A DNA stretch of 64,000 nt from Candidatus Omnitrophota bacterium (GCA_041663665.1 JBAYMG010000002.1:35509-99508); one strand, 5' to 3'; positions 3,503 to 20,181 are shown, counted from the stretch's first letter. Numbers and translations: made by a program. The notes: generated from the letters alone by a model not told the origin.

Positions 3503-4954
3503 ATGGATCGAAAGATAAAAATAGGACTTTTAATATTTGCTCTGTTTAGCCTGGTTTATTTCCTTTCCGTAAGAGGCAACATAGAAATAAGCGATACCGG
3601 CTTTTCCGTACAAACAGCCAAATCAATTGTTACAAAGCATTCTTTATCAATCCAGGAATGCCGTGGAGGCTATTCCTATAAATCAGAAAAAGATGCCAAA
3701 TGTTATTCTAAATTCGGGTTAGGTTTAGCCTTAATATTTACCCCTTATGTACTCTTAGGAAAAATAGTAGCCACCTTAAGTAGCCTACCAGAGGCCCAAA
3801 CCATTAATTTTCTTATATCTTTTTATAATATATTTTTCGGAGCAGGAGCTTGCGTCGTAATGTTCTATATTATCAAATTTTTCGGAGGCTCCGATAGAAT
3901 TTCATTAAATATGGCCTTATTGTTAGGACTTGGAACTTTCTGCTGGCGTTACAGCATCTGGGACTTTTCTGAAGCAGCACAAATGTTTTTTCTCGCACTT
4001 TCTATTTACTGCGTCCTAAGGAATAGCATCAAAAGCCTCTCTTGGGGTGCGTTTTCTTTATGCTGCTTGCTCTTGCTAAAAGCTATCTATATTATTTATA
4101 TTCCTATTTTTATTATCTATATTTTAACAAAAAACAGGCAGGATGCAAAAGATACTTTAACGCGGGCAGGCATGTTTCTTTTAATCATTCTGGCGGGTTT
4201 CAGTCTTATTCTTTTATTAAACTATATTCGATTTGGAGAATTTTTTGAATTCGGCTATGGGTTGGAAGCAAGGGAGTTTTATTTTCTGGGAATCCAAGAA
4301 CATGTAAAAAAATTATTGTACTGGCTTGATAAGGGAGTATTTATTTATAACCCCTTATTTATTCTTGGCATACTGGGATATTGTAAACTATTTAAATTAT
4401 TCCAGAAAGAAGCGATTTTTTTCCTCTCCATTATTACCTTTCATCTCCTTCTTACCTCCATGTGGTATAGTTGGCATGGAGACTGGTCCTGGGGGCCAAG
4501 ATATCTAGTACCAACGGCTCCGCTCTGGCTAGTACCCTGCTTTCTTTTCTTCAACAAAAAGGGTATAGTTAAAATCGTATTAATTTTGTTTATTTTTGTA
4601 TCTTTATCAATACAGATTGTTAGTATTCTCCAAGGCAATCTTGAATACCTTACGATATGCAATACTCACAACCAAGAAGGATTTAAAAAAGGGATGCCGG
4701 CTCAAATTATCGGAGCAGCAATAACTTTAAAACATAAACTTATTAAAAATGATAACGTATACAGCCTCTCGGAGTTTGGAGTAAATTCCAATACGCAGAT
4801 AGATGTTTCTCAGGCTGGTTATAGGGGATTTGATTTTTGGTATCTGCACTTAGCAAGACACTTTAATAAACCTTGGTTAAAATATCTGCCGTTATTATTT
4901 TTGCCTTTTATAGCTATCCTTTTTATCCGCCTTTTTAAAATAACCGCAATATAG
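3503..4954 (+). CDS. GT-C fold integral-membrane glycosyltransferase-like protein (ArnT/PMT-like)
   Basis: 483 aa with more than 10 predicted TM helices. Acidic first periplasmic loop (EISDTGF). Sits next to a UbiA/DPPRT-like gene, as lipid-linked sugar transferases do. Confidence 0.45.
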   Translation: MDRKIKIGLLIFALFSLVYFLSVRGNIEISDTGFSVQTAKSIVTKHSLSIQECRGGYSYKSEKDAKCYSKFGLGLALIFTPYVLLGKIVATLSSLPEAQTINFLISFYNIFFGAGACVVMFYIIKFFGGSDRISLNMALLLGLGTFCWRYSIWDFSEAAQMFFLALSIYCVLRNSIKSLSWGAFSLCCLLLLKAIYIIYIPIFIIYILTKNRQDAKDTLTRAGMFLLIILAGFSLILLLNYIRFGEFFEFGYGLEAREFYFLGIQEHVKKLLYWLDKGVFIYNPLFILGILGYCKLFKLFQKEAIFFLSIITFHLLLTSMWYSWHGDWSWGPRYLVPTAPLWLVPCFLFFNKKGIVKIVLILFIFVSLSIQIVSILQGNLEYLTICNTHNQEGFKKGMPAQIIGAAITLKHKLIKNDNVYSLSEFGVNSNTQIDVSQAGYRGFDFWYLHLARHFNKPWLKYLPLLFLPFIAILFIRLFKITAI

Positions 4955-4985
4955 CTACCCGTGAAAAGGATAGAATTTGCCCCCT

Positions 4986-5022
4986 CTTCTCTAAATAAAA
5001 CCCTCTGTAAGTAAAGTACCTG
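4986..5022 (-). terminator. rho-independent terminator (minus strand)
   Basis: Minus strand: CCCTCTG, 15-nt loop, CAGAGGG, then TTTTATTT. About 70 nt downstream of the promoter-like element at 5095..5122. Confidence 0.5.
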
Positions 5023-5094
5023 CAGAGGGTTAAAAAACATTGGTTGCGCGCATTGGTATAGGTAATAACTGTATCTATCAATACACACAAGCTA

Positions 5095-5122
5095 ATTATA
5101 TAGGAAATTGGGCAGATATCAA
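5095..5122 (-). promoter_or_regulatory. orphan sigma70-like promoter (paralog of the NlpC/P60 promoter)
   Basis: Minus strand TTGATA-16 nt-TATAAT. About 100 bp including downstream leader is roughly two-thirds identical by eye to 2400..2500. No ORF follows; the terminator at 4986..5022 does. Confidence 0.45.
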
Positions 5123-5288
5123 GGAATTGTAGGCTATAAGAGATAGATTTTGTGTCACTTTTGTCACCTTTTTAAAGAACTATATCTCTCTAACTTATTC
5201 GTAAACAGAGAGTTAACGCATGTCACCTCTTTCAGGGGTGACATGCGCCAAAAAAACTACTATTTTTTCACAAAAAGAACAAACATTA

Positions 5289-6326
5289 TTAAACAAGTGG
5301 TTTTAACAATTTCTTTAATACACCTACGTTCTTTAACACAGCTGTGTCTTGAGGATTGACAAAAACAATAAAATTCGCAATGCCTAATAAGTGTTTTAGA
5401 TAATTAGCACGTGTATTTCTTATCCTCTGGAGATGAGAATCTAACCCGAATTTCTGTATATAATACATTTCTTGCCTAAATTTTTTCCGAAGCATCTTAG
5501 AAACCTGCAAATTTTTATTTGTTACTATCCCCGTAACTTCTTGCCTTTGATGAACATGCATTAGACGAGTTTTAGTTTCATTAATAGATAATTTCTCAGA
5601 TGCTAAAACGCTTTTAACAAAATTTATCATTGATCCAGACTTAATAGCACCAGAAAAAGTCAAGTCATCAGAATACCTTGTAAATCGAAAACCATATTTC
5701 TTAGAAAATCCGGCTATTCTTTTATCGATATTCATAGCAATTAAATTGGACAACGCAGGACTAGTAGGAGCTCCTTGAGGTAAACTACCATCTAAACAGC
5801 ACAAATTCGCAAACATTGTTGCAACAGGCTTGCTATACCCGAATTTCCTAAAGAGACTAAAAACTTTCCGGAATTTAATCGAACCGAAAAAGTCTTTTAT
5901 ATCAATCGTGAGCACTTTTTCTTGTCTAAGATGAAATCTGGCATTTTCCTTTATCGATACTCCCGAGACATAGGCTTTTGCATATTTACTACATTCACAT
6001 TTTTCCAAAATTTCCTTTAAAATCCATCTTTGGATTTCCTTTAGGGAAGGTAGCGGTTCCGCAATCTCACGAGAACCACCAGATTTTTTTTTAATAGTAA
6101 AAGTCCTATAAAACCAGTGGGGAGAATTAGACGCCTTTATCAAATATGACAATTTATACCCTACCAATAAAGCCAAATGTTGCTGATTATAAATTATTGG
6201 AAGATTTTGTTTAAAAAGGTAAGCTGCATAATTTAAACATTTATTTATCTGGTCTGTATCAAAACCATTGCGTTCAGCCCCTGCTGTAAACTCTTTCTGA
6301 TATTTTTCCCAAAGAATATTATCCAC
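5289..6326 (-). CDS. Retron-type reverse transcriptase
   Basis: 345 aa. RT motifs LPQGAPTSPALSNL (QGxxxSP), RYSDDLTFSG (YxDD), and the retron-specific VTG motif (RQEVTGIVTN). Lies directly downstream of a structured ncRNA bounded by inverted repeats. Confidence 0.85.
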   Translation of the reverse strand: MDNILWEKYQKEFTAGAERNGFDTDQINKCLNYAAYLFKQNLPIIYNQQHLALLVGYKLSYLIKASNSPHWFYRTFTIKKKSGGSREIAEPLPSLKEIQRWILKEILEKCECSKYAKAYVSGVSIKENARFHLRQEKVLTIDIKDFFGSIKFRKVFSLFRKFGYSKPVATMFANLCCLDGSLPQGAPTSPALSNLIAMNIDKRIAGFSKKYGFRFTRYSDDLTFSGAIKSGSMINFVKSVLASEKLSINETKTRLMHVHQRQEVTGIVTNKNLQVSKMLRKKFRQEMYYIQKFGLDSHLQRIRNTRANYLKHLLGIANFIVFVNPQDTAVLKNVGVLKKLLKPLV

Positions 6327-6338
6327 AACATCTCCATA

Positions 6339-6580
6339 CTAATGAATCTCGATAACCCCATTACCAATCAGTTTCTTCATCTTACACTAGAACAAATCAA
6401 AATTTGTTCTAGTGTCGTGCCGGCTTTAGCTGGCACGGAATGAAGATTGTGAGCGCAACTCCAGTTGCGCGAAACAGTCTTCATTCCAAGGCTTGAAAGC
6501 AAGTTCCTCTCAGGTTGACGACTCGCCAACCCTTGTGACCATAGCCACAATGAGCTAATGGGGTTATCGAGATTCATTAG
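6339..6580 (-). ncRNA. Retron msr-msd non-coding RNA
   Basis: A perfect 25-bp inverted repeat (6339..6363 vs 6556..6580; a1/a2) brackets about 190 nt. The interior holds nested hairpins: ggaatgaagattgt...acagtcttcattcc enclosing gcgcaact/agttgcgc, plus gtgccggc/gctggcac and cactagaacaaat/atttgttctagtg. Sits immediately 5' of the RT gene. Confidence 0.7.
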
Positions 6581-6887
6581 GCATCTTTCTTTTATCAGGT
6601 ATATATATTTCGTCTTTACTTAATTTTCTAACCCTATATTCTTCTTGGAGGCTAATCCATCCTTCTGTGTTTTTCCTACCAAATTTTTTATTTAATGCTG
6701 CTAACTTTTCTAAACCGCTTCCTGTTAAAACTAATTGGTCTCCCTTATTTTCAGCATAACCTTCTTTTTCAATAGAATGAATCAAGCTAGCGATTTGAGA
6801 ATATTCGAGTCCGGCTTTCCTCAAGCTATAAACTCCTCCATTATTCTTAAGGATCTGTAATAATAAAATAAGGTATTGTTCTTGCAT
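6564..6887 (-). CDS. Small winged-helix DNA-binding protein (retron accessory)
   Basis: 107 aa. Its stop codon lies inside retron repeat a1. In an operon between the PRTase-like gene and the ncRNA. Confidence 0.5.
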   Translation of the reverse strand: MQEQYLILLLQILKNNGGVYSLRKAGLEYSQIASLIHSIEKEGYAENKGDQLVLTGSGLEKLAALNKKFGRKNTEGWISLQEEYRVRKLSKDEIYIPDKRKMPNESR

Positions 6888-6892
6888 ACAAG

Positions 6893-7756
6893 TTAACCTG
6901 CTGAAAAAGGTGCAATAAATTTTTTCCCATTCTCCATGGAATTCTCACACCAATATACAGGGAAAGTATTATTGGGCGTTCTTGACATCATAGCCACAAG
7001 CGCTTCCGTCCTATTGTAACCAAAATTATATTTTTTCTTCACTTTTATTAAACTTTCAATAGATTCCATAATCCTTGATTTTGTTTCTCGTTCTGGATTT
7101 AAATAACTATCACTTATTCCTCTTTTTCTTATTATGCGTGAAAAAACTCTGATTCCAAGCCTGCTTAATCGTTGCACCCCCATTTCTTGTGCTACAAGAG
7201 AAACAACGAGAATCTTATTGTAATCTGTAATCCCAGCAAGACGACACATATCCTTCACTGCGGTTTCTCCAGTCTCTCCCGATCCAATAAAATCATCAAC
7301 TAAAATTAACATTGCCGGGATAAAATTTATGTCCTTGGGGATTGCCAAAGGACTGTCTATAAGACATATTTTCTTACCGCGAAATAAATCGTTGTTCGAA
7401 AGGTGTGATATTTTAATAAGATACCTAGTAAAAATGGCGCTTTCATTTCTAGTCTCATTTTCTCTTTTCTCCGGATAAGACTGTAATGGCAAAATATAGA
7501 TTTTATTACAATCCACCAATAATTTTTTTTCAATCATAAATAAAGAAGCATACAAATAAGATTCATATTTATTAAGCGTAACCCACAGAAATTCTCTAGT
7601 TAATTCAAAAATTAAACCTTGCTGTTCTGGGCTAAAGTGTTCTAACGCCTGGCAAAAACGATCATATTCTTCCCTATGATCTTCAATAGACCATCCGTTT
7701 TTATTAAATATTTCTGTGAGCTTTTCTAGGGCAACTAGACTGATATTCGTTTTCAT
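6893..7756 (-). CDS. Phosphoribosyltransferase (PRTase)-like retron effector
   Basis: 287 aa. Type I PRTase PRPP-binding motif ILVDDFIGSGETGETAV. 5-bp gap to the wHTH gene. Confidence 0.7.
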   Translation of the reverse strand: MKTNISLVALEKLTEIFNKNGWSIEDHREEYDRFCQALEHFSPEQQGLIFELTREFLWVTLNKYESYLYASLFMIEKKLLVDCNKIYILPLQSYPEKRENETRNESAIFTRYLIKISHLSNNDLFRGKKICLIDSPLAIPKDINFIPAMLILVDDFIGSGETGETAVKDMCRLAGITDYNKILVVSLVAQEMGVQRLSRLGIRVFSRIIRKRGISDSYLNPERETKSRIMESIESLIKVKKKYNFGYNRTEALVAMMSRTPNNTFPVYWCENSMENGKKFIAPFSAG

Positions 7757-7833
7757 TATTAAAGATCCACGTTCAATGTAAAAAAATTATTTGCCACTAC
7801 ATACGCATACCAAATATAATTATACCTCAGAAA

Positions 7834-8499
7834 TTAATGATAACAAGCGCACAAAAACTGCATAAGTACTGACATTTCAAATAAAACTCCATCAAATCCC
7901 TTATCTTTCTTTAAGTACTTATTATACGCCTCTTCCCCAGATACTAAATGGTATTTCTTCTTCTTAGAATCCCATTCAAACTTGATCCTTGTCTTATCTG
8001 GGGCTCTTGTGGACAGGGTTGAGAATGTCTTTTTTAAGCTCCTTGCAAGTTCTTCTTCATTCCAACCGTGTTTCTTACAATTCTTAAGAAGATATTTTTC
8101 ACGAAGCTCTCTAATGTAATCTGTCATCATTTCATCTTCCGTAACTGGCTTATAGGAAGAAGGTAATAAATCATCTATGGTTTTCTTATCATAAACAAAC
8201 CTCTGATACTCTGTTATCTTATTCTCAGAAATCCAGTTATCTATGCTTCTCTTATGAAAGACTACTTTGCTCCTAGGTAGCTTAGAAAATGGCATTTTTT
8301 GGCCATTTACCCAGGTTTTTATGGTGCTAAGAGGCACACGCAGGTAATCCGCCACTTCTTCTTCATTAAACACCTGTCGGCTTGTTTTCTTGATTAGGGA
8401 GGCTTCCTGGAGGGATCTTTGATCTAAAAACTCACCACAATGCTTGCATTTAATGGCTTCTTCCTGGATTTCTTCTGCGCAGAAAGGGCATCTCTTCAT
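7834..8499 (-). CDS. Zn-ribbon plus excisionase-type HTH protein (hypothetical)
   Basis: 221 aa. N-terminal CPFC...CKHCG zinc ribbon. HTH pattern VADYLRVPLSTIKTWVNG. 4-bp overlap with the upstream P-loop gene. Confidence 0.45.
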   Translation of the reverse strand: MKRCPFCAEEIQEEAIKCKHCGEFLDQRSLQEASLIKKTSRQVFNEEEVADYLRVPLSTIKTWVNGQKMPFSKLPRSKVVFHKRSIDNWISENKITEYQRFVYDKKTIDDLLPSSYKPVTEDEMMTDYIRELREKYLLKNCKKHGWNEEELARSLKKTFSTLSTRAPDKTRIKFEWDSKKKKYHLVSGEEAYNKYLKKDKGFDGVLFEMSVLMQFLCACYH

Positions 8500-9014
8500 C
8501 TTCCAAACAGAATATTGGTTCGCTGTTGAATTATTCTTGCATTGAAATAGGTAAAGTTTCTTGCATTAAGCGAAAAAGGCTCTATGTTTAGGTCTAGCCT
8601 ATTTTGCATGTCTCTGGGGATAACTCCATTATTATTCCTTCCTGGGTTGATAACAAATGAGCGTATCTCAAAACCACCTATCCTCCGCAAAAGACTGAAT
8701 ATTTGTTCAATTCTTATACGCTTCTTAGAATCAGTAGGTTGAATAGCCATTACTACACCCAGGGCATGTCTATCTTCAAGCACTGCTCTTAAAAATCTCC
8801 ACAACTGACTAATCGTAGCCTTGGGGTTTTCTTGGAAAGAATCTGGAATAACATATAATCTACGCAGCGGATTAACCGTTAGATTTTCCATTATATACAC
8901 GCGTAAGTCTCTAAAAAAATTACCTGTTCTTTTTCCACCACAACCCGTAAGACTTCGTATAATTGCGCTTTTACCAGACTTGCTATACCCAATAATTGCA
9001 ATAAATTTTTTCAT
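8496..9014 (-). CDS. Small P-loop NTPase (hypothetical)
   Basis: 172 aa. Walker A IAIIGYSKSGKSAI. Translationally coupled to 7834..8499. Confidence 0.5.
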   Translation of the reverse strand: MKKFIAIIGYSKSGKSAIIRSLTGCGGKRTGNFFRDLRVYIMENLTVNPLRRLYVIPDSFQENPKATISQLWRFLRAVLEDRHALGVVMAIQPTDSKKRIRIEQIFSLLRRIGGFEIRSFVINPGRNNNGVIPRDMQNRLDLNIEPFSLNARNFTYFNARIIQQRTNILFGR

Positions 9015-9023
9015 TATTAACTC

Positions 9024-9785
9024 CTATTTTAGCTCTACCCAACCATTAGGTTTTACAAATAAAACTTTTTTGTGATCAATAATGTAATCTAGTTCAAAAA
9101 ATTTATCGATATTAATAATATCGCTATCAGTAAAAATTTTATAAATCAGGAATTGTGGCTTTAATGAACAAACAAAAAATACAACATTTTTATTACTCTC
9201 AAATTTTATTTTTTTAGAAGAAATTAACTTTTTCAAATCTCCGGCATAATGAAGCAGGAGACCTTTTGTATTTTTTGTATTTGTTTTTAACGTACCTCTG
9301 TTAACACTTTCAAGCACATGAAACAACACGGCATCTTGCTGGGGTTCTTTGATCAATTTTTCAAGGTCTTGTATACAGGTTACTGTATGGGCTTTGAATT
9401 CTACTATTGTACTTCTTTTATATTTCTCATTCCCAATATCATAAATAGATAGATCTATAGACCCGGAACTTTCAACCCCACATTTACTTTTAAAATTATA
9501 TTTTCTTACTGTGGGTGTTTCAACAGAAAACCTTATTCCTCTTTTTTCCAGTTCAAAGGCAAAAAGAAATCTGGCTTCTTGTTCACTTATCCTAGTATAT
9601 GGTTTTCCTTTATTTATTGCCTTGGGAAAAATTAAATTTGTATAATCATCTGCATGACAGTATAATTCGTTTTTCATATCAAAAAGCTTCTTGGACACAG
9701 AAATGGCTATTTCTTTCAATTCAGATATCTTTTCTTCGTTTATCATTTTGTCTTTATCCATGCAAATATTAATTATATTTTCCAT
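9024..9785 (-). CDS. Hypothetical protein, possible PD-(D/E)xK nuclease fold
   Basis: 253 aa. Putative nuclease triad pattern SEQEARF...GSIDLSIYD...TIVEFKAH (E, D, ExK). Weak. Confidence 0.35.
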   Translation of the reverse strand: MENIINICMDKDKMINEEKISELKEIAISVSKKLFDMKNELYCHADDYTNLIFPKAINKGKPYTRISEQEARFLFAFELEKRGIRFSVETPTVRKYNFKSKCGVESSGSIDLSIYDIGNEKYKRSTIVEFKAHTVTCIQDLEKLIKEPQQDAVLFHVLESVNRGTLKTNTKNTKGLLLHYAGDLKKLISSKKIKFESNKNVVFFVCSLKPQFLIYKIFTDSDIINIDKFFELDYIIDHKKVLFVKPNGWVELK

Positions 9786-9824
9786 CAGTATAATACTGCT
9801 TATACACTTATGCGCCTTTAATGC

Positions 9825-11012
9825 TTAAAAATCAACATCTCTAAGAAAACTTGTGATTTTAGATGACTCCTTATCATCAATGCCATCCCACTTATTTTTA
9901 ATGTTAATTTTTTCAGGAGGTCTTGAAAAACTTGCAATATAAGACTTGATGTCATCAATTTGCTTCTTCGTTTTTCCCACAGCAGTTCCATGTATCTCAA
10001 TATCATGAGACAAAGGAGTGCCGTAATTTCCCTTATCCAAACCAAGAGCTTGTATATTTTGTTCATGATAAGCAAAACCTAGAAAATAAACCCGCTTTGC
10101 TTTTTGGAATATTTCCCTATAGTCTTCTTTTTCCAAAGGAAGCTCATGACTAATTCTAATCATTTTTGCCCGCTCGATGATTTCCTTGGCAAAAGTACTT
10201 CTAGACTGATCATTAATAAATTGACTTACTCCAAAATCCGCCTCACTAGCACCAAATGTTCCCACTTTGTCATATAATGGGAAAAGGTCTCTGAAAGTAA
10301 CAGGAGTAAAATCATTGATTACTTTTGGTTGTTTCCTGTGCGCCTGCTGATAATTAAATTGCCAAGACATTATACCCAGCTTCCCATGAACATGTTGAAT
10401 AGAGATTTCATCAAAAAAACTTGCAATCTTATTCTCATAATCATGTAAATTATATTGGGCCTTAATTGCTTTAAACAAAAAGATTTCTAATGAACGGTCG
10501 TAATTAAAAGTGATAATTTTTAGCCGGTTATTCTTAAGTTTTTTAAAATCTTTTCCAGTGTCATCTATGAGTCTTTCCCATAAATATCTATACCACCCCC
10601 ATTTTAATCCAAAATTTTTATTTCCTTGAAACCGTCTTATGTCTTCACACTCGGATAAAGCAAAAAGTATAAAAAGTTTTCCTATCAAGCTATATTTTGT
10701 AGGAGATAATAAAAAATCGTCAATTGAAGGAGGATTTGCATCCTCCAAGTCTGCGGCGAATTTTTGGATATCATCAACAGAATAGGAACCGTTATCTTCC
10801 TTTTTTTCTCCGGAAATATCTAATAAACGCCAAAGTAGATGAGAATTTCGCAAGGAATGATTGACAATGTCTTTGGGAGACCGCAAGTGAAGGCCTATAG
10901 TTTCTCCTGCGGCTAAATCAAGTATGTTTTTTATTAGCGTTTTCCCTAAAGGAAATCCCACTTCGTTACTTGAACCAGCTCCAAGAATCAAAACTGTTTC
11001 CTTATCAATCAT
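9825..11012 (-). CDS. SIR2_2-family (defense-type SIR2-like) protein
   Basis: 395 aa. N-terminal VLILGAGSSNEVGFPLGKTL matches the SIR2_2 'LGAGxS...G.P' Rossmann start. C-terminal RVYFLGFAYHEQN repeat of the FLG motif. Confidence 0.65.
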   Translation of the reverse strand: MIDKETVLILGAGSSNEVGFPLGKTLIKNILDLAAGETIGLHLRSPKDIVNHSLRNSHLLWRLLDISGEKKEDNGSYSVDDIQKFAADLEDANPPSIDDFLLSPTKYSLIGKLFILFALSECEDIRRFQGNKNFGLKWGWYRYLWERLIDDTGKDFKKLKNNRLKIITFNYDRSLEIFLFKAIKAQYNLHDYENKIASFFDEISIQHVHGKLGIMSWQFNYQQAHRKQPKVINDFTPVTFRDLFPLYDKVGTFGASEADFGVSQFINDQSRSTFAKEIIERAKMIRISHELPLEKEDYREIFQKAKRVYFLGFAYHEQNIQALGLDKGNYGTPLSHDIEIHGTAVGKTKKQIDDIKSYIASFSRPPEKINIKNKWDGIDDKESSKITSFLRDVDF

Positions 11013-11112
11013 ATTCTACTCTTGGCTACTCTCAACCTTCCAACTTTATCTCTTATATTATACATTTTCTAAATTAAATTCATTTATCAAAAAACTCAGA
11101 AAACTATAGATC

Positions 11113-14100
11113 TTAATTGCGCATCTCTTCGTCTCTATCTAAATGCTCTTTAATTATTACACCGATACTTTCGCTGCATTTTTTTATAATATCTTTCAGG
11201 CTAGCTGATTTTGCTTTAAGATATAAGCTTTCGAATGTATCTTTCAATTCTAATAAGACTGGAGGAACTTGACCAACTGGCGCAGACCAACCATCTTCAG
11301 GATAGGTCTTATGAAAAAATAGAGTTTTTACTTCATTCTCTAAATTGAGTTTTATAGCCTCCTCTCCAATTCCAATAAAAATTTCTTGGTTTTCTTTAGA
11401 TAATGTAAGAAATTCCATACAATACAAAGCATTCTGGACATCTTTTTGCCCCAATAGTTCCCGTATAAAAGCAACATGATAATTTGCTCCCGACCCCTTG
11501 TCGATAATATCTACTACTGTTTTAACTAAGCCCTTCAAATATAAATGCCCATACTTTTCTTCCTTTTCCCACTTAATAACACGTTTAATAAATTTTGTGT
11601 AATCATCGTAAGAATGGATTACTTCTCTCAGTGCTGTAATACCCTCAAATGGTATAACATAGAATCTATCTTCTCCAGATAGTTGTTTTTGTAATTCAAA
11701 TCTATTCTCAACAAAAATTAAGAGCTCATCAACATCTGTTATGCAGAATTTTAACAAATCTTGTTCATGCCATTCAAACTTAAGACTTTTTTTTAACATC
11801 TCAATAATTTTAACTCTAAATTCTTTAGTTTTCGGACTTTCCACTTTAATATCATTTTTAAGGCTGTGGACGAAGAAATCCACTGCGTCTGTAAATTCTT
11901 TAGCAGGATCTGACGTTTTACTTATCATCATAATGATAAACTCGATACATTCATCGAAATTTCCTGTTTGTTTTGAAATAAAATAAAGATTTCTAATAAT
12001 GCCAGGATACCACTCTTGTTTACCATCTTGAATCAACCTGATAATCCAATCCTGCCAAGGAACATTATTAATAGCTTTATCAATTAACCACAAGAAGTTA
12101 GAAATTTTGTTATAGGAAACGCTGGATAAGCTAGCAAAAATTTCGTTTGCCAATCGCAATAAATGACCTTCTTGAATATTAACAAGGGTATAATCAATTT
12201 GGTTTTGGAACATTTCTGTTATGTTGCTCCAGAATAAATCATTGTTCCGAATTTCTTTAAAGGCTTTTGGGTTGATTTTGACCCAACAATTGAGAAATAT
12301 TACACCACTCCAGCTTTGGCTATTAACAATAAGTTTTCCTAAATCCACCAAAAAATCGACAATCGATACCGGATCTCTGTATTTACTATTTAATTGTTGA
12401 ACTATGTTCTCAAAATCTTCTTCTTTCCTATTCCAACGATCAAGTCTACCGTTATGCACAAACCACTCCCAACGTTTATCTTCAGGAGCATTACTTTCAA
12501 CCTCACTAAAATCATCTATTATAAATTCTTCGGCAGCAAAGGCTCGAAATATTAAATATTCTGGAGTTCTAGGTATTATTCTCAAATATTTTGCGACATT
12601 TTCTGCTCCTTCTCGTTTAGTTGCCCAAAAACGAACAAACATATCTTCAATAGCGCTCAAAAGCTTAAAATCTTTTGTTTTGCTTATTATGGTTCCGACC
12701 TTTTCAACTGCTGCTCTAGTTTCTTCAATAATTCTAGGATAAAGAGGAAACTCAGATGAAGGCTTACCCAGACTCATCGCTCTATGACCAATATGACGGA
12801 CTACCTGTAAAGCATTTTGCCTCACCGATAAAGAATCATCATCTAACATCTTATAAAGTATTTCTATCGCTTTATCCCGCATGGCAATTACCTGGGGAGA
12901 ATTTTTCAAATAACGTTCTCCAAATACGAATTTATCCATATAGGAATGTGTGTACTCATGCGTACCCGCAAGAACTTCATTTAGTCCTGACTTCAAAAGT
13001 TCCACTCCCCGCGGTTTATCATCTTTCATCCAAGTCTCCATTAATAAAAGTCCGGAGAGGATATTCTCAAGATCATTTGATATAGGACAAACAAACTGTG
13101 AAATCAAAGTTTCAATGTGATAATTACTATATGATCCCTTTTTTACTAAGCCGCTAATATCATAAATAAAACTTAATACTTGTTCTCTAGCAGTACTAAC
13201 CGCCATTAGTCTTAAAAGAACCGGCCCATAGTCATCAGTGGAAAGTTCATACCTACTTGATTTTAGATATGGATTTTCTTCTTCGGGAGCAATTATCTTT
13301 TTATAGCTCCGCAACAATCTCATTGATTCTTCTGGTATAAGCGTAGCTACATCCTCAATAAATTTTAGATGCTGCCTTCTTTCGCTTAACGGCGTGATCG
13401 CCGCGTCTTGTTCCCACTTTAAAGCAATTTCAGACAAACAGACCTTTACTTTATTAATTTCACCATATCGAGAAGCAGAGCCTATGTTTGAAAAGACATT
13501 ATTAGGAGTAATGGTAATCCAATGCAAAATAATACCCCTAAGAAACGTTTCCTCCAAAAACTCTAGTTTATAACCTAGATATATATCTCCTTTCATATCA
13601 GTATTAAATCTTACACTATTGCCAACCTTTCTAAGAATGCCTACTTTTATTAGTCGTTCTATAGCGCCAGATATTAACTCCAGTTTCACCTCAAAATTTG
13701 TTGTCAAATTCTCCAGTATATTTTTGTCACCTATGTGAAAAGGAACTATACACGTTAGAGTAAATATAAATAGTTCAAAATCAATATCAGCGAATCCAGC
13801 TAAGCATTTCTTTGTATCAACTATTATGTCCTCGATGAACTTCTTTCTCAACGTAACAAAATCGGCAATCTTAGTCCCCTTGAGTTTATTCCCGATCCAT
13901 ACTATTAAATAAGGATTAGAATTATAATGAACAATCTGCTCCTCATCTTCAACGGGATTTTTACCAACAACTAATCTCAACAACTCCGTCAGCTCTTCCT
14001 TATTCCATTCCTTAATTTGGAACTCTTGCATATATTGAAAACATTTCATTTCTTGTACAACTTGAATAATAATATAAACTCCCGAGCTTCTTGTGGCAAA

Positions 14101-14952
14101 AATTACCTTTACATCCACGCCACTTTCTTTTAAGAAATGAAGCAGCGGACGAAGTTCTTCAACATAACGATCTGCGTCATCAACGATTAATAAATATTTC
14201 TTATCTGAACTTATTTCAGATTGGAGGGCTTCAATATTTGCAAAACCTGCCCGAACAAACCAAATTTGTCTTTCTCTATCAATACCCCGAACAAATAGAG
14301 AAAGATCTCGAAGAAGATGCGACTTTCCCTGCCCTCCGTGTGCATAAAGATGAAATATTTTTTGATCTTTTGAGCCCAAAAAACCACTTATACTGCGTTT
14401 GCATTCATTTAATGCAGGTCTTTCAATTGTAGAAGGAATAATTTCACGCTCGAAACTATTATAGTAATAACCGCTATCGACCAAAGCTGGATATGGATAT
14501 TCTTTAAAAAAAAGAAATCTTAAATAGGGATATCTTATAATGCGCATTTCAAGATTTTCTCGAGACCAAATCTCTAATGTTTCCACGTCTCCCTTATTAA
14601 TAGATTGTAACTCTAAAACATGCTCTATTCTTAACTCAGCATTAGTAGATATACGCAAATGGTTCACCTTATTGTCCTTAGCTTTCTTCAATTCTTCTTT
14701 AACGACTGTTTTTAAATACTCTCCTGCTTCGTCAAACGATTTTTTGGTCCATTTTGACTGTACTGAAAATACTCCTGAATCCTTTTCTAATTGATAGTAT
14801 CCTTTATAATAACCATCCCATCCTCCATCGGCACCGATATATGGACTTGATGGGATAAATCCTGGAGAATCACATTCTAAGGCAAATAAATGATTAGTTA
14901 ACCTCTGAAAAATTTTATCATTATCTATAAGATTCCAATTAAGCATCCTCAC
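11113..14952 (-). CDS. Mrr-like nuclease / STAND-type P-loop NTPase / C-terminal repeat protein (Avs-like)
   Basis: 1279 aa. N-terminal GADGGWDGY...VQSKW resembles the Mrr_cat GxDGGxDG...QxK motif. Walker A LYAHGGQGKSHLL and Walker B LLIVDDAD. About 900 aa of helical repeat region follow. Confidence 0.65.
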   Translation of the reverse strand: MRMLNWNLIDNDKIFQRLTNHLFALECDSPGFIPSSPYIGADGGWDGYYKGYYQLEKDSGVFSVQSKWTKKSFDEAGEYLKTVVKEELKKAKDNKVNHLRISTNAELRIEHVLELQSINKGDVETLEIWSRENLEMRIIRYPYLRFLFFKEYPYPALVDSGYYYNSFEREIIPSTIERPALNECKRSISGFLGSKDQKIFHLYAHGGQGKSHLLRDLSLFVRGIDRERQIWFVRAGFANIEALQSEISSDKKYLLIVDDADRYVEELRPLLHFLKESGVDVKVIFATRSSGVYIIIQVVQEMKCFQYMQEFQIKEWNKEELTELLRLVVGKNPVEDEEQIVHYNSNPYLIVWIGNKLKGTKIADFVTLRKKFIEDIIVDTKKCLAGFADIDFELFIFTLTCIVPFHIGDKNILENLTTNFEVKLELISGAIERLIKVGILRKVGNSVRFNTDMKGDIYLGYKLEFLEETFLRGIILHWITITPNNVFSNIGSASRYGEINKVKVCLSEIALKWEQDAAITPLSERRQHLKFIEDVATLIPEESMRLLRSYKKIIAPEEENPYLKSSRYELSTDDYGPVLLRLMAVSTAREQVLSFIYDISGLVKKGSYSNYHIETLISQFVCPISNDLENILSGLLLMETWMKDDKPRGVELLKSGLNEVLAGTHEYTHSYMDKFVFGERYLKNSPQVIAMRDKAIEILYKMLDDDSLSVRQNALQVVRHIGHRAMSLGKPSSEFPLYPRIIEETRAAVEKVGTIISKTKDFKLLSAIEDMFVRFWATKREGAENVAKYLRIIPRTPEYLIFRAFAAEEFIIDDFSEVESNAPEDKRWEWFVHNGRLDRWNRKEEDFENIVQQLNSKYRDPVSIVDFLVDLGKLIVNSQSWSGVIFLNCWVKINPKAFKEIRNNDLFWSNITEMFQNQIDYTLVNIQEGHLLRLANEIFASLSSVSYNKISNFLWLIDKAINNVPWQDWIIRLIQDGKQEWYPGIIRNLYFISKQTGNFDECIEFIIMMISKTSDPAKEFTDAVDFFVHSLKNDIKVESPKTKEFRVKIIEMLKKSLKFEWHEQDLLKFCITDVDELLIFVENRFELQKQLSGEDRFYVIPFEGITALREVIHSYDDYTKFIKRVIKWEKEEKYGHLYLKGLVKTVVDIIDKGSGANYHVAFIRELLGQKDVQNALYCMEFLTLSKENQEIFIGIGEEAIKLNLENEVKTLFFHKTYPEDGWSAPVGQVPPVLLELKDTFESLYLKAKSASLKDIIKKCSESIGVIIKEHLDRDEEMRN

Positions 14953-14983
14953 CCCTATTGTCTTGGTTACAGTTCAAAAAACA

Positions 14984-15023
14984 ATAAAACCTTCGTCTGC
15001 TTATTAAGCAAACGAAGGTTTTT
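14984..15023 (-). terminator. rho-independent terminator (bidirectional-looking) after the 15219..16247 gene
   Basis: Stem ccttcgt/acgaagg with T-runs on both strands. Confidence 0.45.
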
Positions 15024-15218
15024 CTTATTTTAAAGTGGAGGTTCCCCCTTCAAACTGCACCACTATAGTATCTTTTATTAACACCTTTAATGATACCACT
15101 AATTTAATACGCGTCAATAGAAATACCTTATCCCTAAAAATATTAGTTATGGCCCTATTTCATTACGAGACATTATTGCTAGGGAATAGGTAAGAATAAA
15201 TTCTCCCACGGTAGGTAC

Positions 15219-16247
15219 TTATTTAACCATTCCTTTTATTGCTTCTACAGCCCCAGCGCATTCATAAAGCGGGTATTTTTGACGCATCCGAAGGATATTA
15301 AGGTAGGCTTTCAATTTAAACCCTGTACTCTGCTTACGGAAACAGGCATACCGTAAACCATCTGTAATAATTAAAGATCCACAATGCTCCCGTCCCTTAG
15401 CGCGCGCATACTTGCTTACCTGATTGAGGTGTTCAAAAACAGAACTACCCTTAGCCTTTGTTTCGATAATGCAGCTTAAGAAAGAATCCTTGCGGGTTAT
15501 GCGCCTAAATAAGGCGATATCAATATTGCGCCATTCAATAGTCGTCTCTTTATGCGTCCAGTCAAGTGCACGTAAGAATGGAATAACTATATGGGTAATG
15601 GTTTCCTGCTCAGAAGGCCATTCGCCTAGCTTTTCCCTCTTTCCGTACCATTCACCGATCTTACGAATCGACTTGAGAGCAGAAACTACCATCTTTGCGC
15701 GCTCCTTGGAAAATCCTTGCGCTATAAGCTGTCTTTTGACTTCTTCATCCGTAAGACTGATCGATGTCTTGGGTAATGCCTTAAGCTTACGCTCTAACTG
15801 CTTTGAAGAAACCTTAAGCTGCCTTATCCAACGCAAAACTTGAAAATTATTCACGCTGGCAAATGTCCTTACCTGCGCTCCTAAAGTTCTTGGAAGAAAC
15901 CGCGTTCCCGCATTAGGAAACCATCTTACTCTGCGTGTATGCTGAATATGATAATCATCCACATCGGCAAACTCCTCAAGTATCATAGGATGATCATCAG
16001 CAATCACACCTACAGCGATAATTTTGGCTGTACCAAGCCTTGCCACCACTATATCCCCTTTCTTTGCAGAATGGTAAAAGCGCCGAATACTGTTCTTTAT
16101 ATCACCGTATTTGGAATAGTTCTTCTCATTGAATAATCCTTCGTCACCCGGGCCAATAGCCATTAGGTCGTATTTTAAGAAAAGATCCCCGTAGGAGCGC
16201 TGATTACTGCCGGTGCCAACTTGCCAAACCCTTCCCTTTATATCCAT
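15219..16247 (-). CDS. Hypothetical protein (G+C-richer; possible PD-(D/E)xK C-terminal domain)
   Basis: 342 aa. No confident motif. C-terminal IDIALF...CIIETKAKG could be a D...ExK. Composition stands out from neighbours. Confidence 0.3.
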   Translation of the reverse strand: MDIKGRVWQVGTGSNQRSYGDLFLKYDLMAIGPGDEGLFNEKNYSKYGDIKNSIRRFYHSAKKGDIVVARLGTAKIIAVGVIADDHPMILEEFADVDDYHIQHTRRVRWFPNAGTRFLPRTLGAQVRTFASVNNFQVLRWIRQLKVSSKQLERKLKALPKTSISLTDEEVKRQLIAQGFSKERAKMVVSALKSIRKIGEWYGKREKLGEWPSEQETITHIVIPFLRALDWTHKETTIEWRNIDIALFRRITRKDSFLSCIIETKAKGSSVFEHLNQVSKYARAKGREHCGSLIITDGLRYACFRKQSTGFKLKAYLNILRMRQKYPLYECAGAVEAIKGMVK

Positions 16248-16388
16248 GCCAACCTCCTTCTAGAGTATCAAGATAATCATCCCATAACAATCATTGCCAT
16301 ATAATCTGGCAAATAGCAAGTTAAAAATGATTATAGCACCGTAGGCACACGGTGTAAAGGTAAACGAAGATATGCGATAATTGCACCT

Positions 16389-16607
16389 ATGGAAAAGGAT
16401 GTGCGGCTTAAATTAGCAGCTAGATTAAGGCAGCTTAGAGAGAAATGCAAATATACACAACAGAAGCTTTCAGAGCTTTCTGATGTAGACTACAAACACA
16501 TCCAATTGTTAGAAAGTAAGAAGCCCTCTGCCGCAAAGATAGATACCCTGCAAAAGCTTGCGAGAGGATTCAATATCCCCCTTTCAAAGTTACTGGATTT
16601 TAAATAA
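16389..16607 (+). CDS. XRE-family HTH transcriptional regulator
   Basis: 72 aa. Cro/C1-type HTH LKLAARLRQLREKCKYTQQKLSELSDV. Confidence 0.75.
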   Translation: MEKDVRLKLAARLRQLREKCKYTQQKLSELSDVDYKHIQLLESKKPSAAKIDTLQKLARGFNIPLSKLLDFK

Positions 16608-16629
16608 ATTTAAATCAACAAACTGTCCA

Positions 16630-18294
16630 TTAGCCTCTCCTGTGCCAACCATACCAGCCGTAAGGCACGCGTCCAGTTGCATCTGGATACATATCGGGAT
16701 TACAAGGCAGTTTACTACCATCACCACCAACCCAAAACATAAAGTTATTATCCTCCAGAGCCAATTTTACAGCTAGCCATAAAGCATCTATTGCATCATC
16801 ATGCGCGCCTTTCGGACAATGTTTCATTTGTTCAATCAAAACATGCAGTCTTCTGCTAAGCTGTAGTACCCCGCTGGCAAAGAGAGGCTGAAGCGATTGA
16901 AAACGCCCCAGCTTGTCTGTAGTATTCGGAATACCCACAACTGGCACATAAACCTGCGCTAACTCGCTACGCCTTTTCAACTCAGAAGCAAGAAACTCCT
17001 GAAACTGGTTAGTTTCAACCCCGAACTTCGTGTAACCGCGTATCTTCTGATATGACATAATCGTCTCAATTATGTTATCGGGTTTGCGCTTCGCCACGTC
17101 CGCGTCAATAACATAAAGGGTTCCTTTTTCAGTGTCTTTTGCTACGGTTACAATAGCAGTATAGTCGCTCCTTCTGCTCTCTTTGCCAAGACTCGGGTCG
17201 CAACCGCCATACATCCTCTTCTTTGCGCCTAAATTTACCAGCAGATTTTCTGTACTAAAATGCTTATCCTCCAAACCACCGTAGCTATCGGCATCAAATA
17301 TCCGATCCCTGGGATTTACCGGCTCATTTTGCATTTCACTGTCAAAACTTGCTGTTCCTTCCTCTAAGCGCATGACCATAAGGTCATAATAACTGTATTT
17401 TGCCTCCCAGAGAACCTGGGCCCCCTCAAGCATCTGGGTTTTGTTTTGCTCAAAGAACCTTAGCGCCGCTTCAGGCCCTTCGCCTCCTTCAAAGGCATCC
17501 TGGTGGCTATATATCCTTTCCCATTTCTCCCACAGCTCAGGATGCACAGACCACGATATGATCGAACGGTAGATGCGTTTTTCCCAGCCAGGATGTGCGT
17601 CGGAACTTGTAAATTGCGCCAGGAGCGATCCGTAATTGTGGATTGTCCCAAGAAAAACTACATTGGTTGCGCTTGTGCCGGATTTTAATACTGACCGGGT
17701 GAGATAATCATAGAGTCTTTCGAAGTTCTCGGTAGACTGAATAGCATTACCCGCCTCCAGATCATCAAGAATGATCAAGCTGGGCCGTGATTGCTTGTAC
17801 TTACGGCTCCTGATCTGCTGGTTATAGCCAAGCGCAAGCACTTCGATGCCATTTTTGGTAATAATATCATCTTGTCTCCAGCGTGGCGGTTTGGGTTTTT
17901 CGCCGATTTCGCAAATATCGGGAAAATCATCCTTGAGACGCGGGTTAGTCTCAAGCTCAAACTTGATGTTAGTTAGGAAACTTTCGGCCTGCTCCTTGGT
18001 GTTGGAAATAATCACAATAAAATCTTCCAAATGGTAGCAAATACAATAAATTACAAACTCAAAGGACGCAATGGTGCTTTTGGCGCTGTTACGCGGGGAG
18101 GCCAGGGCAATACGAACTCCACGCTTCCTAGAAGCCCCCACTAGTAACTCCCCTATATCCCGATGGAATGGCGCATCGGCAATAGAATGGTAAAGCGGAA
18201 AATAATATTTTCTAAAATACTCGAAGTTTCTTCCGAAAGACCGCCGTAATTTTATTGCATCGCCTTTTACTTGATATAACTGGGCATTATTCAT
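16630..18294 (-). CDS. Phage terminase large subunit
   Basis: 554 aa. N-terminal ATPase region (RIALASPRNSAKST). C-terminal RNaseH-like nuclease region GGCDPSLGKESRRSDYTAIVTVAKD. Confidence 0.85.
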   Translation of the reverse strand: MNNAQLYQVKGDAIKLRRSFGRNFEYFRKYYFPLYHSIADAPFHRDIGELLVGASRKRGVRIALASPRNSAKSTIASFEFVIYCICYHLEDFIVIISNTKEQAESFLTNIKFELETNPRLKDDFPDICEIGEKPKPPRWRQDDIITKNGIEVLALGYNQQIRSRKYKQSRPSLIILDDLEAGNAIQSTENFERLYDYLTRSVLKSGTSATNVVFLGTIHNYGSLLAQFTSSDAHPGWEKRIYRSIISWSVHPELWEKWERIYSHQDAFEGGEGPEAALRFFEQNKTQMLEGAQVLWEAKYSYYDLMVMRLEEGTASFDSEMQNEPVNPRDRIFDADSYGGLEDKHFSTENLLVNLGAKKRMYGGCDPSLGKESRRSDYTAIVTVAKDTEKGTLYVIDADVAKRKPDNIIETIMSYQKIRGYTKFGVETNQFQEFLASELKRRSELAQVYVPVVGIPNTTDKLGRFQSLQPLFASGVLQLSRRLHVLIEQMKHCPKGAHDDAIDALWLAVKLALEDNNFMFWVGGDGSKLPCNPDMYPDATGRVPYGWYGWHRRG

Positions 18295-18932
18295 TTTTTT
18301 CCCTCCTGTTCTTGGGTTATTTCATTCTCAAGATGCTCGACTTCCGATTGGATATTTTTTATTTTCTCCTGATCAGATGGCTCAATTCCTCCTGTCTGGC
18401 TGGCAATGGCTTCAATATCTTTAATGCTGTTTTTTATCTCATCACACATCGCTTGACCATCTGAAGTGGAAAAATGGTGAAAGAAATCTCCTGTGAGAGC
18501 CTGTTCTTTTAGCGGTAAGAAACCGAGGCTCTGGAGCTTCTCGGTTAATTCCTTTACCACCCGCCAGGAGGCAAATTCAGCCTGAGTTTTCTCGCCAATT
18601 GAGCCATCTTTTGAGCGGGCAAGCCGCAGGAGATATAAATGGCTTGTTCTTGCCTTTTGAACCAATTCACCAATAAACTGCTTGGCCTGTTCTAAGCTTG
18701 GCGTAAGGGCGTTCTTCCTGCGGATTTCTTCAAAGTACCTATACACAGTACGATCCGATTTATTCAAAAGCTGAGCTATCTGGGATATTGAAGATCCTTC
18801 AGCGTATAAAACAGAAACAATCTGCTCAATTGTTTCAGGAGGAAGGCTCGAAACCCTAACGGTACCGCTCTGAATACCCTGGATATAAAAGGTGGTGGGT
18901 TTCTCAGAAGAATTTTTATTTTTTGCCATTTT
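18291..18932 (-). CDS. Terminase small-subunit-like HTH protein
   Basis: Internal start MAKNKNSS chosen to avoid overlap with the upstream gene. HTH SISQIAQLLNKSDRTVYRYFEEI. Directly upstream of TerL. Confidence 0.45.
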   Translation of the reverse strand, partial: KMAKNKNSSEKPTTFYIQGIQSGTVRVSSLPPETIEQIVSVLYAEGSSISQIAQLLNKSDRTVYRYFEEIRRKNALTPSLEQAKQFIGELVQKARTSHLYLLRLARSKDGSIGEKTQAEFASWRVVKELTEKLQSLGFLPLKEQALTGDFFHHFSTSDGQAMCDEIKNSIKDIEAIASQTGGIEPSDQEKIKNIQSEVEHLENEITQEQEGKK

Positions 18933-20181
18933 TACTTCCTCCAAAATACTTTTGCCGCACTTCCGGTGAAACCGAATCCATCCCGAAGGCGCGGATGTAA
19001 CGCCGAACAGCAACATCCACATAAAGGGGTTCAATCTCACAGCCCCGAAACACCCTACCCATTTGTTGGCAGGCAATAAGGTTAAACCCTGCGCCCATGC
19101 AGCCGTCAAAAACGACATCATTACGCTCACTGCTGTTAGTCAAGACACGCCGAGCAAGCGATACCGGTTTTGCCGTCGGATGTAATTTGCCAACAGCCTC
19201 ATCATGGTCGAATTGCCAGACATTAGTTTCATTTTTTGGCCCATACCAGCGGTGTGGCCCATTACCTTTGCGCCATGAATAAAGTAAAAACTCTGAGGAA
19301 AATTTGTAATCACCAAACCCTGGGCAGGCGGAGGGTTTAATCCCGGTTATCACATTGGCCACATGGAAATTCATCTCAAGCAAAAGCTGTGTCATCAAAC
19401 CAAAATTGCGGAATCCACCCCAGAGATAAACCGGCGCACCCTCAACGAGGAATTGCATAACGTTCGCCATCACCTCTCTGAGCCACTTTAAATACTCTTC
19501 CCCAACCAAATCATCGTTCTCGATAGGCTTCCAATCCGGCCTCTGCTTTTCTTTGTGCGCAGACTTCGGCCGGTTGCGGGAATCGTAAGCGCAACCGTAG
19601 GGAAGATCCATGTGCAAGAGCGAAATCTTTTCATCGCCTAAAAGGCGCTCAAGGTTATCTTTCTTGGCAGTATCGAAGCAACCGAACTTGTGAAGACCAA
19701 CCTCCACAATATCGCCAGGAACTGTAACCGGCTTATCTATTTGCGAGATTTCTTTTTCGATATCAAAGTCCTCGTCAATCTGCGCAGTGTAGGTATCTAG
19801 GATATGAAACACTTCAATCGGCTCAAATCCGGTTAGGTTCAGCAGTTCCGGAGTCTTCATAATCTCTTGGAAAATTACCGGCAGGCTGGGGTTATCAAAT
19901 TCCCCGACGAGTTTATTTAGCGCCAAATTTAACGCCATTTCCTCTTCAATTGACAGGTCTACCGAAACCACGTTAACTTCTGTATACCCCAACTCGAGCA
20001 GGGCGCGCAGGCGCTGATTACCTCCAACCACATGCCAAGTTCGCATATTGACGATAAGCGGAGAGTAAACTTTAAATCTTCTAATGTTTTCTTTGAGCTT
20101 CTCAAAAACCGCCTTCTTCATCCTGCGCGGGTTGTAAGGCGCGAACTTTAACTTTTCAATTGCCATCTTTTGTCTTTCCAT
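18916..20181 (-). CDS. ParB-like nuclease domain / DNA methyltransferase fusion (phage-type)
   Basis: 421 aa. N-terminal ParB/Srx pattern (KLKFAPYNPRRM...VVGGNQRLRALLELG). MTase motif IV-like DLPYG and motif I-like VFDGCMGAGFN near the C-terminus (beta-class order). Confidence 0.65.
   Translation of the reverse strand: MERQKMAIEKLKFAPYNPRRMKKAVFEKLKENIRRFKVYSPLIVNMRTWHVVGGNQRLRALLELGYTEVNVVSVDLSIEEEMALNLALNKLVGEFDNPSLPVIFQEIMKTPELLNLTGFEPIEVFHILDTYTAQIDEDFDIEKEISQIDKPVTVPGDIVEVGLHKFGCFDTAKKDNLERLLGDEKISLLHMDLPYGCAYDSRNRPKSAHKEKQRPDWKPIENDDLVGEEYLKWLREVMANVMQFLVEGAPVYLWGGFRNFGLMTQLLLEMNFHVANVITGIKPSACPGFGDYKFSSEFLLYSWRKGNGPHRWYGPKNETNVWQFDHDEAVGKLHPTAKPVSLARRVLTNSSERNDVVFDGCMGAGFNLIACQQMGRVFRGCEIEPLYVDVAVRRYIRAFGMDSVSPEVRQKYFGGSKNGKK

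Follow-up and report, generated by a model that had tools for sequence, protein, structure and literature searches.

The window analysed here is a 64,000-nucleotide stretch of a Candidatus Omnitrophota genome (GCA_041663665.1 JBAYMG010000002.1:35509-99508), in which two adjacent minus-strand genes encode a large protein of the STAND class (signal transduction ATPases with numerous domains) and a small protein with a SIR2 fold (Table 1). A preliminary description had proposed that they form a split STAND plus SIR2 antiviral pair with two effectors or, alternatively, two independent systems; the alternative is better supported, since relatives of the two genes are almost never found together. 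Both protein sequences are found unchanged in a Candidatus Omnitrophota metagenome-assembled genome (MAG), on a 188-kb contig where they are consecutive and annotated as hypothetical proteins. Open reading frame (ORF) calls confirmed the extent of the two genes and the 100-bp gap between them. NCBI annotates the STAND protein as 1,277 residues, starting at an ATG at position 14946, two codons after the GTG of our ORF, and this ATG is likely the true start. A text search of the literature, which did not extend to the supplements of Lee et al., returned no mention of the accession numbers.

The STAND and SIR2-like proteins

The central NTPase of the large protein is readily recognized. Walker A (HGGQGKSH, residues 205-212) and Walker B (LLIVDDAD, residues 254-261) motifs are both present as first reported, and Pfam nSTAND_NTPase5 (PF25199) matches residues 181-289 with an E value of 2.3e-10 and 40.9 bits against a cut-off of 34. 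We modelled residues 1-560 with AlphaFold (predicted local distance difference test score, pLDDT, 87) and compared the model with the PDB using Foldseek. The best fold match was EcAvs4 (8dgf; E 2.6e-12, 698 columns). Further matches were SAMD9, EfAvs5, Avs3, Apaf-1 and plant and animal NLRs, and the archaeal AAA+ proteins SSO1545 and PABY2304 were also among them.

The protein belongs to a family of more than 100 homologues of about 1,280 residues, with identities of 25-59% in full-length alignments. These come from bacteria (Omnitrophota, Patescibacteria, Gammaproteobacteria and Planctomycetia) and from archaea (Methanobacterium, Theionarchaea and Bathyarchaeia). Across 41 aligned sequences, E26, D42, D46, Q65 and K67 of the N-terminal domain and G209, K210 and D258 of the NTPase are invariant. 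No PADLOC model, those for Avs included, matched the 1,279-residue protein at E <= 0.1, and profiles of the STAND and SIR2-like families (A1, A2 and A6) found no sequence relative in the PDB. A search of IMG/VR viral contigs and plasmids likewise returned no STAND relative. In one Bathyarchaeia MAG (locus L105, 10001-13836) the homologue is split into ORFs of 982 and 306 residues, through a frameshift or pseudogene or through an assembly error.

The N-terminal domain had been called an Mrr-type nuclease from the motifs GADGGWDGY and VQSKW, which indeed lie at residues 40-48 and 64-68. In the model the domain consists of a helix (12-26), two strands (47-53 and 58-67), a second helix (73-93) and a further strand (98-103), an order compatible with the PD-(D/E)xK core. 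Residues 1-175 scanned alone against Pfam at E <= 10 gave neither Mrr_cat (PF04471) nor any other relevant family, the one match (E 0.11) being unrelated. The PDB held no sequence match to the domain, whether the single sequence or a profile of 16 N-terminal domains was used, and a hidden Markov model of the domain found nothing in a set of 95 neighbour proteins that includes two with Mrr_cat. The best fold match, Avs4, carries a tetramerising Mrr effector (bioRxiv 10.64898/2026.08.25.746987). The Mrr-type label is drawn from the D...QxK signature, from helices and strands in a suitable order and from the effector of this fold match, and it is less secure than the Avs-like architecture. The catalytic-type residues are invariant in 41 homologues and the secondary structure fits; neither Pfam nor the PDB gives a sequence match.

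The same region appears to be exchanged within the wider family. Paralogues with a SMEK domain align with the STAND protein from residue 190 onward only, and the N-terminal module is therefore swappable. One STAND homologue has a helix-turn-helix (HTH) N-terminal extension instead.

The C-terminal region of about 800 residues, presumed to be the sensor, probably consists of alpha-helical repeats. Residues 480-560, where the model ends, are predicted as helices, and Pfam returned sub-threshold matches to HEAT, Arm and Cnd1 only. These sub-threshold matches point weakly to the helical-repeat sensor put forward earlier; the region is conserved over its full length in more than 100 homologues. A search with the sensor region alone returned two proteins and was uninformative on fusions.

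Taken as a whole, the Avs-like architecture of putative nuclease, STAND NTPase and presumed sensor that had been assigned to the large protein is essentially right. EcAvs4, which joins an Mrr-type nuclease to a STAND NTPase and a portal-binding sensor, shares with it the arrangement of a nuclease-like N-terminal module, a STAND NTPase and a long C-terminal region. The window protein differs from it in having no sequence match to Avs4 or any other PDB chain and no PADLOC Avs match, in having an NTPase of the nSTAND_NTPase5 family and in a presumed sensor that is unrelated by sequence. EfAvs5 (9jap), which pairs a STAND NTPase with a SIR2 NADase effector, matches the STAND module in fold at E 2.1e-8. 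Its SIR2 domain, however, is fused at the N terminus, whereas the window protein has a nuclease-like N terminus and the SIR2 protein is separate, encoded downstream and not conserved with STAND. Moreover, the SIR2 domain of Avs5 is absent from the 50 best fold matches to the SIR2 protein of the window.

The 395-residue protein carries the motifs GAGxS (residues 11-15), FNYD (169-172, within FNYDRS, containing N170 and D172) and HVHG (207-210). Among 62 SIR2-like sequences A12, G13 and N170 are invariant, and G11, D172 and H207 are each found in at least 90%. Its AlphaFold model (pLDDT 92.8; predicted template-modelling score, pTM, 0.92) is one continuous SIR2-type domain with insertions. Foldseek matched this model, at probabilities of about 1.0, to the SIR2 domain of SIR2-HerA, KomC, the SIR2 of SPARSA, FAM118B, sirtuins and DSR2, with identities of just 13-15% and a TM-score of about 0.37. 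Fold and conserved catalytic residues therefore bear out a standalone SIR2 protein directly downstream of the STAND gene. Its assignment to the SIR2_2 family is less direct. The protein had no Pfam match at E <= 0.1, SIR2_2 included, and PADLOC SIR2 models match it weakly (E 1e-3 to 3e-2) over short stretches; in favour of the assignment are the fold, the motifs and some remote homologues of about 300 residues that carry PF13289 (SIR2_2).

We collected 570 homologues of this protein. About 26 of them form a subclade of about 400 residues at 35-83% identity to the window protein, and a much larger set consists of proteins of about 300 residues, some with PF13289. Searched against 1.84 billion representatives, the family profile matched 6,644 at E <= 1e-30 and 11,965 at E <= 0.001. 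The best 150 of the 6,644 are nearly all standalone proteins of 295-480 residues; fusions to a STAND module are absent from these 150, all of which are too short to be one. IMG/VR viral contigs yielded five distant relatives, none accompanied by a STAND gene.

The best fold matches of the protein are the SIR2 subunits of SIR2-HerA (Nezha; 8su9 and 8j4u, E 2e-4, probability 1.0), which are of similar size at about 400 residues. They differ from the window protein in that identity and TM-score are low and that the window family has no conserved partner; no HerA-type ATPase was found by Pfam or PADLOC among eight neighbouring proteins. The SIR2 NADases DSR2, ThsA and SPARSA share the fold and the catalytic Asn and His at a similar spacing (N170 to H207 in the window protein), with weaker fold matches. 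Each of them carries a regulator or partner (a large C-terminal region in DSR2, SLOG in ThsA, a pAgo partner in SPARSA), whereas in the window protein the SIR2 domain, with its insertions, stands by itself. Features of Thoeris, namely an SLOG fusion or a neighbouring ThsB with a TIR domain, were not found either: the model contains a single SIR2 domain, and the scanned neighbours gave no TIR or SLOG match.

Genomic contexts of the two families

We next compared the loci in which the two families occur. The pooled set comprised 135 loci (1.2 Mb), searched by tblastn and then with a broader SIR2 profile. By tblastn, STAND relatives are present in 37 loci and SIR2-like relatives in 98, and no locus contains both. 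Seen from the STAND side, which covered 27 genome loci and six further distinct loci, a SIR2 protein of the window type stands beside none of about 33. Eighty metagenome loci of the SIR2-like family were equally without a STAND relative. The 100-bp spacer of the window showed no homology to, and gave no alignment with, the 3' flank of the closest STAND homologue. With 0 of 135 loci shared, the split dual-effector system that had been proposed finds no support in the distribution of the two families.

Members of the 400-residue SIR2-like subclade (36-52% identity) have a different upstream gene in every lineage seen. In two lineages (loci L001/L129 and L120) the gene has hsdM before it and hsdS behind it, and stop and start codons overlap. 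Across these lineages HsdM has kept 83% identity and the SIR2-like protein only 56%, which indicates that the embedded gene evolves much faster than its host operon. Elsewhere the gene follows hsdR by 132 bp (L125-127), HamB of a Hachiman HamA/HamB pair by 26 bp (L117-119) or an SLFN-type helicase fused to Peptidase_S24 by 3 bp (L002). It overlaps a small TPR gene beside an integrase in L121, and in L004/L123 it comes after a 178-residue gene of no assigned family. In the wider SIR2-like family no Pfam family recurs in more than two of 95 immediate neighbours, and BLAST clustering of the neighbours gave no cluster with three or more members. Many neighbours of the 300-residue relatives are housekeeping genes, such as those for MutS, epimerases and dehydrogenases.

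Downstream genes of the STAND family are similarly diverse. The closest informative relatives (40-48% identity) are followed by a GIY-YIG-like ORF, a convergent radical-SAM gene, a 286-residue gene, GmrSD or a 250-residue membrane protein. In loci L082, L091, L092, L100, L105 and L110 there is no co-directional downstream gene, the next gene being absent or convergent. An FRG gene lies downstream in L101 and L103, a DUF4062 gene in L084, and a 289-residue family without family matches in L085, L086 and L098, which represent two lineages. A 255-residue family is found downstream in L087 and upstream in L110, and Methanomicrobiales loci have a pair of 89 and 372 residues downstream. Genes for SOD, an FtsK-like protein, GmrSD, a GIY-YIG-like ORF and a membrane protein each follow STAND in single loci. 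Type I restriction-modification (R-M) genes also stand beside some STAND homologues.

Two further features recur around the SIR2-like genes. In three loci a Peptidase_S24 (LexA-like) domain is present at the C terminus of the large NTPase beside the SIR2-like gene: on the SLFN-type helicase of L002 (7596-9992, E 1.7e-10) and, weakly, on HsdR of L120 (6107-9577) and L125 (3266-6868). This unusual fusion may be linked to the SIR2-like gene. A conserved gene pair also lies just downstream of the SIR2-like genes in two lineages (11431-13709 in L004/L123 and 11002-13256 in L117-119). It encodes a protein of 323-329 residues without a family match (51% identity between lineages) and a 430-residue metallo-beta-lactamase (MBL)/RMMBL protein (62%), and may be a relative of the published trypsin-MBL module.

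Probable independent modules and other readings

We consider it most probable, at roughly 0.64, that the STAND and SIR2-like genes are two separate single-gene anti-phage modules that have become neighbours by chance in a horizontally acquired, low-GC defence island. This reading follows from the absence of any locus with both families by tblastn, from the changing upstream gene of the 400-residue SIR2-like subclade together with the lack of a conserved neighbour in the wider family, and from the many STAND homologues that have no co-directional downstream gene. The defence-island setting of the two genes agrees with it. It also follows from the STAND family keeping an effector of its own, as seen in N-terminal residues that are invariant in 41 of 41 sequences and in the SMEK exchange of the paralogues; an invariant effector combined with module exchange is the usual behaviour of self-contained Avs proteins.

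The analysis shows how both genes are built, which folds they encode, that their catalytic residues are conserved and that their pairing is not; we infer their anti-phage function, triggers and enzymatic outputs as follows. By analogy with Avs3 and Avs4, the C-terminal 800 residues or so of the STAND protein would bind a phage protein, and binding would drive ATP-dependent oligomerisation of the NTPase. Oligomerisation would in turn bring the N-terminal PD-(D/E)xK-like domains together, so that DNA is cut and the infection aborted. Once triggered, the SIR2-like enzyme, whose N-x-D...H set is intact, would most likely break down NAD+ or modify a target by ADP-ribosylation. Members of its family travel alone and are inserted inside other defence operons or at their 3' ends, where they probably rely on the transcription of the operon.

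Several observations weigh against independence. The two genes of the window are co-directional and 100 bp apart with no terminator-like site detected in the spacer, and co-transcription is possible for these reasons. The SIR2-like protein is a single catalytic domain without an obvious sensor, which puts its regulation in question. Close coupling to the next gene downstream (from a 1-bp overlap to a 15-bp gap) is seen in about one-third of STAND homologues, the DUF4062 gene of L084 included, and three of the coupled families (FRG, 289-residue and 255-residue) recur in divergent STAND lineages, which hints that the STAND family is able to work with accessory genes. In addition, the contexts of the two closest relatives are out of view: the nearest STAND protein (P0122, 59% identity) comes from a contig of 4.4 kb and the nearest SIR2-like protein (P0002, 83% identity) from one of 1.5 kb. 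Finally, in a Methanobacterium MAG (L082) a STAND homologue with 33% identity is preceded, at a distance of 31 bp and on the same strand, by a gene for a SIR2_2 protein, the only other adjacency of SIR2 and STAND found with the broader SIR2 profile in the 135 loci. Elsewhere the two families almost never co-occur, this exception involving a different SIR2_2 gene.

The L082 gene (8563-9969 of NZ_JBNAKN010000002.1) encodes 468 residues, with a SIR2_2 domain (E 2.5e-21) at the C terminus that is preceded by an additional N-terminal region, about 260 residues long and with a D...EIK motif. Common origin of this region with the N terminus of the STAND protein was considered and rejected (hhalign probability 0.1%).

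These same observations, apart from the two short contigs, would favour a dual-effector pair, in which detection of a phage protein would make the STAND protein oligomerise, fire its own nuclease and activate the separate SIR2 NADase. There is also precedent for a fused effector combined with a separately encoded one, and for one effector serving several sensors, in Avs2-trypsin-MBL, a conserved pair whose MBL nuclease is switched on through cleavage by the fused protease (bioRxiv 10.64898/2026.08.25.746987). The window pair differs in not being conserved, and it is not obvious how a nuclease-like domain would switch on a SIR2 enzyme. No window-type SIR2 is found at other STAND loci, and no STAND gene at about 98 SIR2-like loci. 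The SIR2 protein of L082 is of another subfamily (hhalign matches only 70 columns), with an extra domain and a gene order opposite to that of the window, and a rough estimate, rather than a computed test, places two SIR2 neighbours in about 60 defence-island neighbour slots close to chance. Moreover, the FRG and DUF4062 proteins beside other STAND homologues match the PADLOC single-gene candidates PDC-S15 and PDC-S60, and these downstream genes look like ordinary island neighbours. We therefore regard a dual-effector pair as unlikely.

Another conceivable arrangement would resemble PrrC, which is embedded in the EcoprrI type I R-M locus and guards it. The 400-residue SIR2-like clade could be a portable add-on effector, or guard, for large NTPase defence proteins encoded upstream (HsdM/HsdR, HamB, the SLFN-type helicase and STAND). 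A bare NADase domain would then be co-transcribed with, and physically licensed by, the upstream system and would fire when that system is engaged or inhibited by phage; FRG, DUF4062 and the 289- and 255-residue genes would be alternative plug-ins of the STAND family. Consistent with this, members of the clade closely follow another gene on the same strand in every context seen, and in five contexts the upstream gene is a large defence enzyme (hsdM, hsdR, HamB, the SLFN-type helicase and, in the window, STAND). The protein is indeed a bare catalytic domain, and the hsdM-SIR2-hsdS arrangement has persisted, with HsdM at 83%, despite the drift of the SIR2-like protein to 56%. Trypsin-MBL modules are likewise reported to associate with several different sensors, namely Avs2, HamAB and Ago (bioRxiv 10.64898/2026.08.25.746987).

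The proposal is nonetheless improbable in our judgement. The upstream partners have no common feature that we could identify, and two contexts have only a small unknown or TPR gene upstream. Next to members of the wider 300-residue family, housekeeping genes are as frequent as defence genes, and insertion at the ends of operons is predicted equally by simple promoter piggy-backing. If such plug-ins do exist, the concept of a guard or backup effector would extend beyond PrrC, and small effector genes nested inside R-M and other defence operons would be explained.

Least likely by our estimate is a SIR2-like gene that merely lies inside the island and serves regulation or housekeeping as a deacylase or ADP-ribosyltransferase: the very large family (11,965 representatives at E <= 0.001), the many housekeeping neighbours of its 300-residue members and the classical sirtuins among the fold matches would fit this role, but the 400-residue subclade recurs within type I R-M, Hachiman and mobile-element surroundings, defence SIR2 proteins (SIR2-HerA, KomC and SPARSA) head the fold matches, and the gene sits between a STAND gene and a retron in a low-GC island.

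On the reading we prefer, that of two independent modules, the locus contributes one uncharacterised member each to two well-known classes, the STAND receptors of the Avs type and the SIR2 enzymes associated with defence, from lineages that have received little study (Omnitrophota, Patescibacteria and methanogens). The STAND family, conserved over its full length in bacteria and archaea and without a solved relative, could reveal a new phage-protein trigger. The SIR2-like family comprises thousands of clusters without a sensor domain or fixed partner, and so raises the question of how such enzymes are controlled.

The surrounding defence island

The two genes are part of a longer minus-strand array, in the order 342-residue gene, hairpin, STAND, SIR2-like, 253-residue gene, 172-residue P-loop gene, zinc-ribbon/HTH gene, PRTase, 107-residue gene and reverse transcriptase (RT). 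GC content is 0.33-0.35 across 4-14 kb of the window, against 0.39-0.45 in the flanks. The region is a defence island, as judged from a type III-A retron, a pair resembling type III R-M and the low GC content. Features of the two main genes and of the island are collected in Table 1.

Table 1. Features of the STAND/SIR2-like locus and of the island around it (window coordinates; aa, amino acids)
Feature	Coordinates	Strand	Details
Avs-like STAND gene	11113..14952	-	1279-aa ORF, GTG start; NCBI MFA6357391.1
N-terminal PD-(D/E)xK-like domain	14503..14952	-	about 150 aa; putative nuclease effector; invariant E26, D42, D46, Q65-x-K67
STAND NTPase module	13543..14415	-	residues about 180-470; GGQGKS 206-211, DD 258-259; then helical and winged-helix subdomains
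C-terminal region	11116..13542	-	about 800 aa; presumed ligand sensor; conserved full length in homologues
Standalone SIR2-fold gene	9825..11012	-	395 aa; NCBI MFA6357390.1
Spacer, STAND stop codon to SIR2-like start codon	11013..11112	-	AT-rich; exactly 100 bp
Terminator-like hairpin	14986..15022	-	17-bp stem and T run; between 342-aa gene and STAND gene
Type III-A retron module	5289-7756	-	RT, 107-aa protein, PRTase
Retron RT	5289-6326	-	NCBIfam retron St85-family RT, E 4e-71
107-aa protein	6564-6887	-	winged helix by eye; no profile match
PRTase	6893-7756	-	PADLOC PRTase_III-A, E 1.6e-72
Three tightly packed genes directly downstream of SIR2-like gene	7834-9785	-	253-aa; 172-aa; zinc-ribbon + HTH_17
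342-aa gene	15219-16247	-	weak PADLOC PDC-S02 matches, E 4e-5; sub-threshold HSDR_N_2 nuclease domain
Terminase large-subunit-like gene, HTH_7 protein, ParB-N6/N4 methylase fusion	16630-20181	-	Terminase_6C, E 1e-8
ThiF-family E1-like protein	21903-22790	-	
HATPase_c protein	24651-25538	-	
ResIII/SWI2_SNF2 helicase	25599-28406	-	935 aa
N6_N4 methylase	28403-30286	-	627 aa

The strong hairpin upstream of the STAND gene marks that gene as the start of a separate transcription unit. In the spacer sequence, a promoter-like site (11035..11008) scores 10/12; such sites occur at chance rate in this region. In the retron, the 237-bp gap between the RT and the 107-residue gene (6327-6563) is likely the place of the msr-msd RNA; an Rfam scan of 4500-17000 gave no match, retron RNA included. 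The terminase-like gene and its two companions directly adjoin the defence genes and could be a prophage remnant or satellite. Farther along, the ThiF-family, HATPase_c, helicase and methylase genes add to the defence-like content, and the 935-residue helicase and 627-residue methylase resemble the res and mod genes of a type III R-M system.

The three genes that follow the SIR2-like gene are closely spaced, the 172-residue P-loop gene starting 9 bp past the 253-residue gene and the zinc-ribbon and HTH_17 gene overlapping the P-loop gene by 4 bp. Apart from stray zinc-ribbon/HTH and P-loop matches, no relatives of these genes were found beside members of the STAND or SIR2-like families. We also considered whether the 253-residue gene is the real partner of STAND, with the SIR2-like gene inserted between them, and rejected this, the protein having no similarity to the 250-, 255-, 229-, 283-, 286- and 289-residue genes of STAND loci. 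The 253-residue protein itself has no family match and carries a possible nuclease-like D...EFK motif.

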